Positions 12,756-42,994 of a stretch of DNA of 64,000 nucleotides are shown here, one piece after another. A program made the translations under genes and the position numbers. Positions within the stretch are counted from its first letter, which is position 1, and each line of letters starts with the position of its first letter. Source of the DNA: Hyphomicrobiaceae bacterium. GTDB lineage: Bacteria; Pseudomonadota; Alphaproteobacteria; Rhizobiales; Hyphomicrobiaceae. The notes under the pieces are model-generated. The model did no database searches, was not told the DNA's origin, and saw only the letters and a program-made list of their open reading frames with translations. The DNA is taken from NCBI GenBank assembly GCA_031379035.1, contig JANNEU010000083.1:2854-66853 (forward strand). Reading direction: 5' to 3'.

Positions 12756-12767
12756 AACGAGAGGTTC

Positions 12768-12850
12768 GAGGGGTTAGGGGTGAGGGATTAGGGAATTTTC
12801 CCAAAACCTCTTCCCTTACCCCTAAAACCTAACCCCTCACTCCTCACCCC
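12768..12850. repeat. G-rich imperfect palindrome (REP-like) between gst and ffh
   Basis: gaggggttagg (12768-12778) pairs with cctaacccctc (12828-12838), and the inner arms are partly complementary. It contains the word gggttaggggtgaggg, also seen at 40772 and (reverse complement) 41914. Confidence 0.6.
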
Positions 12851-39506: not shown

Positions 39507-40730
39507 ATGAAAAACTCGAGGATACGGCGTCGGAGGCTTGGGTCGGCTGGCATTCTTGCCACGGCATGGGCCATATTCCTCGCTTTCCCGACCCATGCGC
39601 AGACGCCTGCGCCGCTGAAGATCGGAGTGTTGAGCGACCTCTCCGGACCTTATGCAGATTCGGGCGGGCCGGGCTCAGTGCTAGCGGCGCAGATGGCGGT
39701 AGCGGACTTCGGCGGCACGATGAAAGGCCGCAAGATCGAGATCGTGGCGGGCGATACGCTGAACAAGCCAGATGTGGCGTCGAGCGTGGCGCGGCGATGG
39801 TTTGATACCGAAGGCGTGGCGGCGGTGGTCGATCTGCCGGTGACGCCGGTTGCCTTTGCCGTGCACGCGCTGGCCAAGCAAGCCAACAAGACGGTGTTGA
39901 TCACAGCGGCGGCGACATCTGATCTCACGTCCAAGATGTGCATGCTGCAAAGTGTACATTGGGCCGACGACACGCACGCGCTGGCGGCCGGAACCGCCAA
40001 GGAGCTGCTCGCGAACGGTGCCAAGTCATGGCAGTTTATTGCCGTTGATATCGCCTTTGGCGCGGCGCTGGTGAAAGAGGCCAGCGATGTCGTGATCGCT
40101 GGCGGCGGTACGGTGACGGGCACGGTCCGGCATCCCATCGGCGCGACGGACTACAGCTCGCTGTTGCTGCAGGCGCAGGCGTCGAAGGCGCAGATGATCG
40201 GCCTGGCGAGTGTGGGTGGCGATCTGGTCAACGTCATCAAGCAGGCGAAGGAATTCCAGATCGGCGCGGACGGCAGCCAGTCGCTGGTCGCGTTTCTGGT
40301 CTACATCACCGACATCAACGCGCTCGGGCTGGATGTGGCGCAAAACCTCGTCGTGACGTCGAGCTTTTACTGGGATCAGAACGACCAATCGCGGGCGTTT
40401 GCGAAACGCTTTTTTGAGGTCCGCAAGGCGATGCCGACCAAGAACCAGGCATCCGTCTATGCCTCGGTTATGCACTATCTGCGGGCGGTGGATGCTGCGG
40501 GAACTGACGAGGCCGCCGCCGTTGGCAAGAAGATGCGCGAGCTGCCGGTCGACTATTTCGGGCGGCCGTCAAAGGTGCGTTCGGATGGCCGCGTGGTGTT
40601 CGATCTTGATGTCTATCGCGTGAAGAAGAAAGCCGACAGCAAAGGGCCGTGGGACTACTATGCGCCAGTGCGCAAGATCCCGGCGGCAGAGGCATTTTTG
40701 CCGGTGAATGCGGCGGTGTGTGGGGGGTGA
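39507..40730 (+). CDS. ABC transporter substrate-binding protein (LivK/branched-chain amino acid type), orphan
   Basis: Signal peptide plus LKIGVLSDLSGPYADSGG..., typical of the Leu/Ile/Val-binding family. No permease or ATPase genes are adjacent. Confidence 0.85.
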   Translation: MKNSRIRRRRLGSAGILATAWAIFLAFPTHAQTPAPLKIGVLSDLSGPYADSGGPGSVLAAQMAVADFGGTMKGRKIEIVAGDTLNKPDVASSVARRWFDTEGVAAVVDLPVTPVAFAVHALAKQANKTVLITAAATSDLTSKMCMLQSVHWADDTHALAAGTAKELLANGAKSWQFIAVDIAFGAALVKEASDVVIAGGGTVTGTVRHPIGATDYSSLLLQAQASKAQMIGLASVGGDLVNVIKQAKEFQIGADGSQSLVAFLVYITDINALGLDVAQNLVVTSSFYWDQNDQSRAFAKRFFEVRKAMPTKNQASVYASVMHYLRAVDAAGTDEAAAVGKKMRELPVDYFGRPSKVRSDGRVVFDLDVYRVKKKADSKGPWDYYAPVRKIPAAEAFLPVNAAVCGG

Positions 40731-40742
40731 GTGCTCGTGATT

Positions 40743-40802
40743 CCCCCTCTCTCCGTCCTTCAACGGGGAGAGGGTTAGGGTGAGGGGCGGCAACGAGTCG
40801 GA
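40743..40802. repeat. REP-like unit, left copy (imperfect hairpin plus a 39-bp block)
   Basis: Hairpin ccctctctccg/cggggagaggg. The block 40764-40802, cggggagagggttagggtgaggggcggcaacgagtcgga, is the exact reverse complement of 41900-41938. Confidence 0.9.
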
Positions 40803-41031
40803 TGCTGCTTCAGTGACAGCTTAACGCTCGTTTTCGTCCGAAGACGAACAAAAAAACCGACGCCGAAGTGGGCCAATTGCTGACGGAAATTATCTTGAGT
40901 TTTCCAATCTGCGACGTCGGCTTCGACTAGATTCGGAAGTCGTGATAAGTCGATAAGGTGCGGGGCCGATATCGGGCTGCGGCGATGTCGGACGATTGTC
41001 CGAAGGTGCCGGATTAGATGCCGAGGGCTGG

Positions 41032-41733
41032 ATGAAGTTCGAACTGGAGGAAAGTCTTCGGGGTGCGCCAGATGAAGCACTTCTGGACGACATGCGCAGG
41101 TGCGCAAAGCTGCTCCAACGTGACACGCTTACGCTGACTGAGTACGGCGAAGCTGGGAAAGCGCATCCGAGCACAATTCAGCGTCGCTTCGGTTCGTGGG
41201 TGAAGGCCTTGGAGTTAGCGGGCTTACAACCCAGTCGATCAAAAATCGGAATTTCGGACGAAGACCTATTCAACGATATCAAGAATCTCTGGGTCACGCT
41301 CGGTCGCCAACCTCGGTACTCCGAAATGAGGGCCCCCGCCGCGCAATTTTCAGCGGAGACTTTTTCTGCGCGCTTTGGTTCGTGGTCAGATGGTCTTGCA
41401 AAATTTGTAGTGTGGGTGAACGCCGACAATGCCGGAAACGCCCAGACCCAAGTTGACGCCTCAGGTGATGTAACTCCCGTACTCAAAGATGCGTTTGAAC
41501 CTGCGAAGCGTCGCACTCGTCGCGAAATCACAGACCGTCAACGATTCAGAACTCTCGTCAGAGACGGATTTAGGTGTCAGTCGTGTGGCGTGAGTCCACT
41601 AACCAAGCCGGGCACAGAGCTGCATGTTGATCACGTTATTCCCTGGTCGAAGGGTGGCGAAACTGTAGATGAAAACCTCGGGACCAAGTGTTTGCAATGT
41701 AACTTGGGTAAGGGAAACGCATTCACCGTTTAA
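41032..41733 (+). CDS. HNH endonuclease with two homing-endonuclease-associated repeats
   Basis: The repeats are ..YGEAGKAHPSTIQRRFGSWVKALELAG.. and ..YSEMRAPAAQFSAETFSARFGSWSDGLAKF... The HNH core is RCQSCGVSPLTKPGTELHVDHVIPWSKGGETVDENLGTKCLQCNLGKGN. An alternative TTG start is at 40996. Confidence 0.8.
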   Translation: MKFELEESLRGAPDEALLDDMRRCAKLLQRDTLTLTEYGEAGKAHPSTIQRRFGSWVKALELAGLQPSRSKIGISDEDLFNDIKNLWVTLGRQPRYSEMRAPAAQFSAETFSARFGSWSDGLAKFVVWVNADNAGNAQTQVDASGDVTPVLKDAFEPAKRRTRREITDRQRFRTLVRDGFRCQSCGVSPLTKPGTELHVDHVIPWSKGGETVDENLGTKCLQCNLGKGNAFTV

Positions 41734-41899
41734 TGCGAAGTCGATCAACGCAGAGATCGTCAGCTTCCGTCGGCTGCAGAAACTCGCTGATCAAATCTGG
41801 ACTGGAAGCACTGGCTCACAAGCGTCAAATCTTCATCCCTTGCAGGGCCAGAATTCACGGCAGCTTATCCCTCGACAGCGCGCGACCGCAGGAGTTGGT

Positions 41900-41967
41900 T
41901 CCGACTCGTTGCCGCCCCTCACCCTAACCCTCTCCCCGCACGCGCGAAAGCGCTACGGGGAGAGGGG
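41900..41967. repeat. REP-like unit, right copy (inverted)
   Basis: tccgactcgttgccgcccctcaccctaaccctctccccg plus the hairpin ccctctccccg / 17-nt loop / cggggagaggg. Confidence 0.9.
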
Positions 41968-42034
41968 ATAAAAGTGCGCTGCGCTTCGACTACAAAGGCT
42001 GATAATCCACAATTCCCCCGCTCATCGCTCCCCC

Positions 42035-42994
42035 CTACCGCCCGCTCGCTACCCGCCCGCCGCTCTGCGTCCGTGCGAGACCGGCTTCGGCGAGGTGGCC
42101 GGAGAGTTTTTCGTTGGGCAGGCCTTCGATGAGCACTTGGCGGACGGCCAGCAGCTTGGCGAGATCGATGCCGGTCGAGAGCCCCATTTCTTCCAGGATC
42201 CAGACGAGGTCTTCGGTGCAGACGTTACCGGAGGCACCGGGTGCGAACGGGCAACCGCCTAGACCGGCTAGGGACGTATCGAAGCTGGTAACACCGGCCT
42301 CGAGGGCAGCGAGTGCGTTAGCGATGCCCTGGCCGCGGGTATCATGAAAGTGAGACCCGCCGACCTTATCTTTGCCGACGGCCTTGAAGAGCGCGGCGTA
42401 GAGGCGTTTGACCTGAGCGGGGTTGCCGATGCCGATGGTGTCGCACGGCGTGATGTGATCGGCACCTGCGGCGAGGCATTTTTCGGCGAGAGCCAGCACA
42501 TCGGCGTCGGGTACTGCGCCGGCAATAGAACAGCCGAATGCCGTCGAGAGGCCGATCTCGATCTTTGGGCGCGATGCCGCAGGGTAACCGTCGCGCAGAT
42601 CGGCGATGCGGCGCAACTCGTTGATCGATTGCTCGTGCGTTTTGCGGATATTGGCGAGGTTGTGGGCGACGCTGACGGAGATCGGCATCGAGACCTTGTG
42701 CGCACCGGCGGCCATGGCGGCTTCGGCTCCCTTTAGGTTGGGTGCCAGGGCGATGACCGTCAGGCCGGGGATGGTGCGCGCGTACCGGACGATCTCGTCG
42801 GCGTCGGCCATGCCGGGCACGACCGTCGCTGGGACAAACGAGCAGACCTCGATCTCGCGCACACCGGCGGCGGCGGCTTCGTTGATCCAGCGCTTCTTGA
42901 AATGGGTCGGCAGGATGGATTTCAGGATCTGCAGTCCGTCGCGCGGACCGACTTCGACAATGGTGACATCGGGCTTACTGGCAGCTGCGGGCAT
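42035..42994 (-). CDS. hydroxymethylglutaryl-CoA lyase-like (HMGL family) enzyme
   Basis: IVEVGPRDGLQ and a DRE-TIM barrel pattern with GGCPFAPGASGNV. Confidence 0.88.
   Translation of the reverse strand: MPAAASKPDVTIVEVGPRDGLQILKSILPTHFKKRWINEAAAAGVREIEVCSFVPATVVPGMADADEIVRYARTIPGLTVIALAPNLKGAEAAMAAGAHKVSMPISVSVAHNLANIRKTHEQSINELRRIADLRDGYPAASRPKIEIGLSTAFGCSIAGAVPDADVLALAEKCLAAGADHITPCDTIGIGNPAQVKRLYAALFKAVGKDKVGGSHFHDTRGQGIANALAALEAGVTSFDTSLAGLGGCPFAPGASGNVCTEDLVWILEEMGLSTGIDLAKLLAVRQVLIEGLPNEKLSGHLAEAGLARTQSGGRVASGR

Follow-up and report, generated by a model that had tools for sequence, protein, structure and literature searches.

Genes enclosed by inverted copies of repetitive extragenic palindromic (REP) sequences are familiar from the REP-associated tyrosine transposase (RAYT) and REP-REPIN (REP doublets forming hairpins) systems, which are said to have been described by Nunvar 2010, Bertels & Rainey 2011 and Ton-Hoang 2012, and to our knowledge the spread of a REP family is understood only for GTAG-type REPs with RAYT transposases. 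Here we describe a locus from a Hyphomicrobiaceae bacterium (contig JANNEU010000083.1), in a stretch of 64,000 nt that we refer to as the window, where a single gene for an HNH endonuclease lies between two REP-type hairpin units facing each other as a perfect inverted pair. The locus resembles the RAYT/REPIN layout in having one gene between inverted REPs, with the same REPs abundant as inverted doublets of short spacer. It differs in its enzyme, which is of the HNH (beta-beta-alpha-Me) type where RAYT is a Y1 HUH transposase; in REPs that lack the GTAG tag; in a gene that forms a cassette, the ends of which are its own and lie 67-73 nt inward from the REPs; in HNH relatives that mostly have no REP flanks or are flanked by other REP families; and in an HNH family that looks horizontally mobile, whereas RAYT genes are single-copy and vertically inherited (comparison also drawing on PMC3733652 and PMC5581495). 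The CGTC-type REPs, which dominate in the Alphaproteobacteria, were found in a survey to be without associated transposase genes (PMC3733652). A gene boxed by REPs and REPs as insertion targets are both known themes; REP doublets that host small nuclease genes (mini-nucleases) seem not to have been described.

Insertion sequences (ISs) with REPs as targets include IS1397 and ISKpn1, which enter the loops of palindromic units, as well as ISPpu9, ISPpu10 and ISPa11. ISPpu9 copies inserted in REPs are described in one report (PMC8450116), and REPs serve as IS targets in Pseudomonas, Neisseria and Sinorhizobium (PMC3733652). The window locus shares with these elements the position of a mobile element inside a REP structure and REPs as preferred landing sites, but its cassette lacks a transposase, inverted ends specific to the element and a target duplication, and a single nuclease gene makes up its cargo. 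Free-standing homing endonuclease genes, which encode nucleases of the classic homing folds HNH, GIY-YIG and PD-(D/E)XK, are exemplified by phage mobE, the seg genes and I-HmuI. With these the window gene has in common a solo nuclease reading frame with DNA-binding repeats, homology limited to the open reading frame (ORF) and short flanks, presence/absence polymorphism, a patchy distribution and possibly a decayed copy (L024, see below). It differs from them in being chromosomal and intergenic rather than in a phage, intron or intein, and in lacking a conserved host-gene target, while a minority of its relatives sit at the center of host palindromic repeats. Mycobacterium tuberculosis carries the 1.4-kb repeat family REP13E12, which encodes HNH (DUF222) proteins; it is likewise a repeated chromosomal element tied to an HNH-domain protein, yet it has another protein architecture and no REP-hairpin doublets. 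With moderate confidence we propose that the window locus is a nested structure of doublet, filler and HNH cassette, and that selfish nuclease cassettes land or home at the centers of REP doublets.

The Inverted Pair and Its Repeat Family

The two arms of the pair (40764-40802, plus strand; 41900-41938, minus strand) are 39 nt long and 100% complementary, with 1,097 nt between them. A window-wide scan for inverted repeats (at least 22 nt, within 3 kb) returned this pair as the strongest, all others having at most 86% complementarity, and the G-rich word of the arms has only two copies in the 64 kb, both in the arms, where chance would give 0.32. On its outer side each arm passes into an imperfect GC hairpin. 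Read from the sequence, the left hairpin (40743-40774, plus strand) has the stem CCCCCTCTCTCCG / CGGGGAGAGGG and the loop TCCTTCAA, the same hairpin type being present on Rhizobium plasmids and in metagenome copies, and the left arm is made up of the inner hairpin arm, the G-rich tail TTAGGGTGAGGGG, the tetranucleotide CGGC and an 11-nt extension, AACGAGTCGGA. The right hairpin (41928-41966, minus strand) has the stem CCCTCTCCCCG / CGGGGAGAGGG and a 17-nt loop with a mini-hairpin. Left and right arms are identical, yet the outer hairpin halves and the loops differ, and when the two arms are joined artificially they fold into one long hairpin. Of their 39 nt, 28 belong to the core that is invariant in the REP family, namely the 27-mer of the metagenome scan and the C before it, and the innermost 11 nt are the only symmetry beyond that common to any two family members. 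The exact arm extension, GTGAGGGGCGGCAACGAGTCGGA, had no match in the scan of the metagenome collection, and no target-site duplication was found beside the arms, where the left neighbor (...TCCTTCAA) and the right neighbor (CACGCGCG...) differ.

A previous annotation made from the letters alone (the sequence-only reading) had described a perfect 39-bp inverted pair with hairpins around 1,097 bp of DNA that is richer in AT than its flanks and carries one gene, with two repeats and an HNH core, in a convergent gap between a solute-binding protein gene and a lyase-like gene. All of this was reproduced: the coordinates and the complementarity agree, GC content is 0.49-0.58 across the interior segments as opposed to 0.62-0.65 in both flanking genes, and Pfam finds PF18780 twice along with HNH in the enclosed gene and agrees, together with the strands, on the nature and convergence of the neighbors.

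The hairpin together with its tail, GGGTTAGGGTGAGGGG, forms a REP-type unit that is present in the intergenic DNA of 23 Rhizobium/Neorhizobium plasmids, and its 27-mer GGGGAGAGGGTTAGGGTGAGGGGCGGC is present on at least 120 soil metagenome contigs. Among the metagenome copies, 56 of the 119 usable ones (47%) have a tail-to-tail inverted partner, with 19-35 nt (once 52 nt) between the G-rich tails, which makes the tail-to-tail, REPIN-like doublet the usual form of the repeat. Distances between partners are discrete, being at most 52 nt (56 cases) or 424-508 nt (3 cases), with none otherwise between 52 and 3000 nt. The window arms have the same orientation as a doublet, tails inward, with 1,097 bp in place of the spacer; in ordinary doublets the palindromy extends only 1-8 nt past the tails. 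The arms have the properties by which REPs are recognized, namely short extragenic palindromes that are dispersed and often arranged as inverted doublets, and they are members of a widespread CGTC-like alphaproteobacterial REP family. The sequence-only reading had likewise inferred a dispersed family, for which the plasmid and metagenome copies now speak, by way of a palindrome at 12771-12787 in the window. Its G-rich word, GGGTTAGGG(G)TGAGGG, and a tail-to-tail symmetry are indeed shared, but the evidence is weak: the palindrome (12761-12845; 35-nt arms, 15-nt spacer, near-identical G-rich word GGGGTTAGGGGTGAGGG) reaches a complementarity of just 77% and has no GGGGAGAGGG hairpins at its termini; it is perhaps related to the REP doublet in degenerate form.

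An Empty Site and a Cassette with Its Own Ends

The genes on both sides converge on the gap. The left one (39507-40730, plus strand; Pfam E 7e-87) encodes a Peripla_BP_6 periplasmic solute-binding protein, to which a second database protein (P0121) is 100% identical, and the right one (42035-42994, minus strand; Pfam E 1e-43) an HMGL-like lyase. Both are syntenic with a metagenome contig of a sister lineage, L083, with which the window shares nucleotide identities of 87% (solute-binding gene) and 88% (lyase gene), so that this is not a close strain. As the sequence-only reading had suggested looking for, L083 has an empty site: 107 bp separate the solute-binding gene from the lyase gene, and they contain neither REP nor HNH. 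Homology between the window and L083 stops at 40708 and resumes at 42033, which means that the whole 1.3-kb block is either an insertion in the window or a loss in L083. The site therefore shows the presence/absence polymorphism at a syntenic position that is typical of homing genes, seen here across 87% nucleotide identity.

Within the block, the HNH gene has boundaries of its own. The DNA common to the window and its two nearest full-length relatives, L001 (91% amino acid identity) and L002 (83%), starts with GGGyCAAT about 160 bp 5' of the ATG and ends with GGnTCA about 92 bp 3' of the stop codon, corresponding to 40870-41826 of the window (about 950 bp). It comprises a 5' non-coding part (40870-41031, plus strand) that starts with GGGCCAATTG and is common to L001 and, more weakly, L002; the gene itself (41032-41733, plus strand), coding for a 233-aa protein whose two PF18780 repeats precede a zinc-finger HNH domain at the C-terminus (Pfam, alignment A1); and a 3' non-coding part of about 92 nt (41734-41826, plus strand) that ends with GGCTCA, the ends having been compared by alignment in the window, L001, L002, L087 and L091. 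This 3' segment contains small hairpins and is kept only in the alphaproteobacterial clade (L001, L002, L087, L090, L091). Identity between the window and L001 is 87.6% over the whole shared block and, judged by eye, about 80% over the 5' non-coding stretch. In distant copies nucleotide homology is limited to the ORF plus or minus 10-50 bp, and this includes two copies within one Sulfuriferula genome.

The ends of the cassette lie 67 nt (left) and 73 nt (right) inside the REP arms. L001, the closest full-length relative, has the same cassette without any REPs, and in L002, the next one, the cassette lies between inverted REPs of an unrelated family. With ends of its own that the window keeps in common with L001 and L002, the HNH gene constitutes a self-contained cassette. 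The left filler between REP arm and cassette (40803-40869, GC 0.49, with a small hairpin) and the right filler (41827-41899), 140 nt together, are not common to L001 or L002, had no relatives in the fetched loci or in PLSDB, and contained no DUF559 remnant.

A similar short motif is found at both ends of the cassette, TGGGCCA (40870-40880) and TGGCTCA (41818-41826) in the window, GGGTCAA at both ends in L001 (295-302, 1237-1243) and ATGGGyCAATT at both ends in L002 (3840-3852, 4773-4785); a short GGGyCAA motif thus recurs, less clearly in the window than in L001 and L002. It could be a target duplication or a recognition site. The surroundings of the cassette are syntenic housekeeping genes, and in the conserved 3' segment no GTTRRRY/RYYYAAC cores of an integron attC site were seen by eye, no attC model having been run.

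Boxed Relatives and Other Mini-Nucleases

Flanks of up to 700 nt were compared for the HNH relatives, 68 loci of which have at least 300 nt on both sides. Flanking inverted repeats are present in 6-8 of these 68 (L002, L004, L013, L042, L054, L055; more weakly L038, L069). Strong boxes were found in 4 of 55-66 loci and at none of 226 shifted control positions in the same loci (Fisher p ~0.002), while at the remaining HNH loci palindromes shorter than 15 nt showed no shift relative to the controls. Boxing of HNH genes is therefore a real, recurrent minority state. The expectation of the sequence-only reading that orthologues would be flanked by the REPs of their own genomes holds in so far as the arrangement recurs (L002, L004, L013) and is enriched over controls, but not for the roughly 90% of relatives that lack it.

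The arms of the boxed relatives are repeats different from the REP family of the window, and in the proteobacterial boxes they are the host's own: inverted copies of the GTCATCCTCGGGCTTGTCCCGAGGA repeat in L002, arms of about 260 bp built of several REP-like modules in L004, and a local 47-nt repeat in L013. At the last of these (L013:2823-3698), the same local 31-nt repeat also boxes a 109-aa gene adjoining the HNH gene, which by sequence reads as a RelE/HigB-type toxin. A different arrangement is seen in metagenome-assembled genomes of Patescibacteria/Saccharibacteria, where the HNH gene belongs to an element roughly 1.76 kb in length whose inverted ends are perfect and 55-112 nt long (L042:282-2050, L055:1475-3235, L054:3581-5342, and the larger L051:1-2077). 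In L042 the order of genes is an XRE-type helix-turn-helix (HTH) gene, the HNH gene and a 149-aa gene. Because the sequence of the inverted ends is conserved between different genomes (L042, L054, L055, L051), the ends there belong to the element. Partial inverted copies of inner-end segments occur just outside the L042 and L055 elements.

The REP family of the window also encloses genes elsewhere. Each of the three metagenome REP copies with a distant partner (424-508 nt) encloses a gene of about 120 aa for a DUF559 protein (L159:209-690, L219:202-759, L242:1095-1647; Pfam E 1e-33 to 1e-37). DUF559 proteins are Vsr-like PD-(D/E)XK nucleases. All three DUF559 genes in the metagenome sample are boxed in this way, they were the only DUF559 genes in all loci fetched before the plasmid sample, and within the fetched contigs the gene enclosed by the window's REP family is DUF559. 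Among alphaproteobacterial replicons (including L253:373-1062, L255:338-1062, L252:319-855 and L258:357-944), palindromic G/C-rich REP hairpins or doublets lie directly 5' of the DUF559 gene in all seven sampled cases and on both sides in four. DUF559 genes are flanked by the window's REP type in Sinorhizobium, Azospirillum and Sphingomonas; in the loci from Sinorhizobium and Azospirillum lipoferum the hairpins are plainly of the GGGGAGAGGG type, and the arms around the S. meliloti gene (L253) are 114 nt long (96%).

Small GIY-YIG genes (about 73-112 aa) make up a third kind of cargo, boxed by inverted repeats of 26-32 nt that are 97-100% complementary, with interiors of 343-371 nt (L024:4797-5220, L090:1006-1491, L091:1295-1723, and L186:2316-2722, a contig fetched for an unrelated reason). 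The arms in L024, L091 and L186 belong to a GTCATCC repeat family (TGTCATCC..GGG..CCC..GGA), those in L090 to another palindromic repeat. In a blind scan of 1.45 Mb, the boxes that had not been picked via their cargo contained DUF559 (3), GIY-YIG (4) and a RelE-like toxin (1), with two doubtful cases, so REP boxes have a strong cargo bias in favor of mini-nucleases, which here represent three unrelated folds. In the literature we found no paper linking HNH, DUF559 or GIY-YIG nucleases to REPs, in line with the sequence-only reading, which knew of no described REP/HNH partnership.

Landing Site, Mobilizer or Bystander

In the reading favored here, the outer layer of the locus is an ordinary REP doublet, two units of hairpin and G-rich tail set tail to tail, of a kind that can usually fold as one hairpin; the inner layer is the 140-nt filler at the position of the spacer, enclosing the HNH cassette of about 950 bp. 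These layers are observed, as are the independence of the cassette, the enrichment of boxes and the bias of their cargo, whereas cleavage, homing and the sequence of steps are inferred. The doublet would have come first and the cassette after it. The center of the long palindrome would most likely be a favored point for breakage or landing, the break being made either by the HNH enzyme in a structure- or site-directed manner or by host hairpin nucleases, and the cassette would then have been copied or captured into the break. The conserved REP arms could afterwards act as portable homology, through which a filled doublet would convert other doublets. In this scheme the REPs would be the landing site and not the ends of the HNH element, and the HNH enzyme would not be what spreads the window's REP family. 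The same landing-site logic would explain why DUF559 and GIY-YIG genes lie inside REP doublets of related genomes. The cassette itself appears, from its relatives in many phyla, to be a selfish gene that moves horizontally and settles sporadically.

Several findings weigh against this proposal. Inverted repeats, even short ones, are absent from the flanks of about 90% of the HNH relatives and present in only some 5-10%, so a palindrome is not needed for insertion. The empty site in L083 lacks the REP doublet as well, and the whole 1.2-kb unit may have arrived in one step. The N-terminal repeats of the protein are highly conserved, which suggests a conserved sequence target rather than diverse REPs. 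Neither the 11 nt of extra symmetry nor the 140-nt filler has a place in the model, and only one filled doublet is known in this organism, with no second copy in the 64 kb, where spread between doublets would lead one to expect more.

The arrangement had suggested to the sequence-only reading that the HNH enzyme plays for this REP family the part of a RAYT, an idea that was to fall if orthologues generally lacked flanking repeats, as the great majority do. Put more broadly, a boxed nuclease (HNH here, DUF559 or GIY-YIG elsewhere) would act on REP hairpins and multiply the doublets, which would be its non-autonomous derivatives. The layout is that of RAYT/REPIN, a gene between inverted REPs accompanied by abundant empty doublets in the same orientation; the CGTC-type REPs of Alphaproteobacteria are reported to have no transposase associated with them (PMC3733652); in the sampled loci DUF559 genes pair with a single REP family, and a second family accompanies three of the four GIY-YIG genes that are boxed; and the cargo of the boxes is strongly biased towards nucleases. 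For the HNH gene, however, the family is mostly unflanked, near-identical proteins are in no REP in L001 and in another REP family in L002, the ends of the cassette are separate from the arms, lying 67 and 73 nt inside them, the window's REPs are abundant on Rhizobium plasmids and metagenome contigs where the HNH gene is unseen, and the family looks horizontally mobile instead of vertically inherited. Three unrelated folds converging on REP mobilization would also be less parsimonious than a shared landing site. We consider this explanation as a whole unlikely: a RAYT-like role is attractive for DUF559 and GIY-YIG and poorly supported for HNH, which is not a dedicated RAYT-like partner of the window's REP family. 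The alternative raised in the same reading, that the cassette lands or homes in REP hairpins, appears to fit the compared loci better.

It is somewhat more conceivable, though still improbable in our view, that REPs and small foreign genes merely gather in permissive convergent gaps, the identity of the arms being that of the invariant family core. The 28 of 39 identical nucleotides are indeed a core common to at least 120 unrelated contigs, the HNH loci of the alphaproteobacterial clade are surrounded by many REPs of varying orientation (L091, L024), and most members of the HNH family are unboxed. Such passive co-occurrence leaves aside the 11 further identical nucleotides beyond the core and the fact that the 64 kb contain no copies besides the arms, which stand in the exact orientation of a standard doublet; partner distances are discrete, with all three of the larger ones enclosing DUF559, no control position was boxed, and the cargo is non-random. 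Very unlikely, finally, is a composite element in which 40764-41938 (39-bp inverted ends, filler and cassette) moves as a unit, in trans or by means of the HNH enzyme. A one-step insertion of this kind is compatible with the L083 site that has neither REPs nor HNH, the Patescibacteria-type elements with their conserved 55-112 nt inverted ends offer a parallel, and the perfect identity of the arms next to divergent outer hairpin halves and loops would be accounted for. Yet no target-site duplication lies beside the arms, the hairpin of each arm is completed by a partner strand outside it, which means that the REP units exceed the 39 nt, no second copy of arm plus filler was found, and in L001 and L002 the cassette moves without the window's arms.

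A wider reading, which we offer tentatively and hold to be doubtful, is that alphaproteobacterial REP doublets are functionally coupled to DUF559/Vsr-like, small GIY-YIG and PF18780-HNH genes, either because the nucleases multiply the doublets, as a nuclease-based counterpart of RAYT/REPIN, or because the doublets serve, in many copies, as dedicated sites for REP-homing endonucleases, which would be a new class, with the HNH box as one instance. If nucleases recurrently occupy the centers of doublets, this would give a handle on what cuts or moves CGTC-type REPs, and also on the means by which tiny selfish nuclease genes last in chromosomes where no phage, intron or methylase accompanies them.

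The HNH Protein Family and Its Surroundings

The start codon at 41032 was chosen because it fits the 233-aa relatives, with the ORF ending at 41733. In Pfam the protein scores above the curated cut-offs for HNH_repeat (PF18780, two units, E 2e-27) and for HNH (E 2e-11). Alignment A1 shows D200-H201, N215, N224 and the two CxxC pairs C182/C185 and C220/C223 to be invariant across the relatives, so that the PF18780 repeats are followed by an HNH motif with the His/Asn residues and CxxC pairs of the superfamily. No Y1 HUH (IS200-like) transposase was found, Pfam giving only HNH_repeat, HNH and HNH_5, and no transposase was detected by Pfam in the gene between the arms, overlapping ORFs there having been left unscanned. 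The AlphaFold model is poor (mean predicted local distance difference test, pLDDT, 59.7), the helical N-terminal repeats alone reaching 75-88, and a Foldseek search of the model against the PDB returned nothing below E 0.3. NCBIfam, PADLOC, PHROGs and the PDB gave only generic HNH matches for the protein, and we found no paper on PF18780 proteins in the literature.

Members of the family are about 232 aa long, and the protein search gave 1,835 matches at E <=1e-5. Among the matches listed, identity is 65-70% to members from Alpha-, Beta-, Gamma- and Deltaproteobacteria and 44-60% to those from Planctomycetota, Bacteroidota, Patescibacteria, Spirochaetes and Firmicutes. The distribution is patchy, with 530 relatives in 185,579 species (one genome each) across many phyla. 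The protein was not found encoded on any Rhizobium plasmid, and no constant partner gene was found, the neighbors of HNH genes being unrelated housekeeping genes. A restriction-modification or defense system was considered and rejected, there being no conserved neighbor, no methylase and only a generic HNH match in PADLOC; a phage origin was dismissed likewise, as no full-length member of the family was found in IMG/VR. For annotation, the PF18780-HNH family is better described as a widespread mobile cassette; the labels restriction enzyme and McrA, which some sources apply to it, do not suit it.

Many members of the family are on metagenome contigs of about 1-2 kb (L081, L082, L088, L089), among them the exact window protein, which is present on L081 and L082. 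L081, which equals positions 40773-41929 of the window, ends inside both inverted arms, and this fits assembly breaks at the flanking repeats; boxing by REPs explains why annotators meet such genes on short, broken metagenome contigs.

A few observations concern the neighborhoods of individual HNH loci. A degenerate HTH gene upstream of the HNH gene, an idea that came from L087 and from loci of the candidate phyla radiation, was searched for with tblastn, which found nothing; the L087 gene reads by sequence as a HigA-type antitoxin and appears to be a mere neighbor of the HNH gene. Genes for tyrosine recombinases lie within 2.5 kb in 5 of 80 HNH loci (L030, L059, L063, L071, L072), the one in L072 having a Phage_integrase domain and a SAM-like N-terminal domain, as in XerC/D or integron integrases. 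In L024 (4001-4852), an HNH copy with 84-94% DNA identity to intact copies carries a frameshift inside the catalytic motif, after HVDHVVPW, and represents either a decaying copy or an indel error of the assembly.

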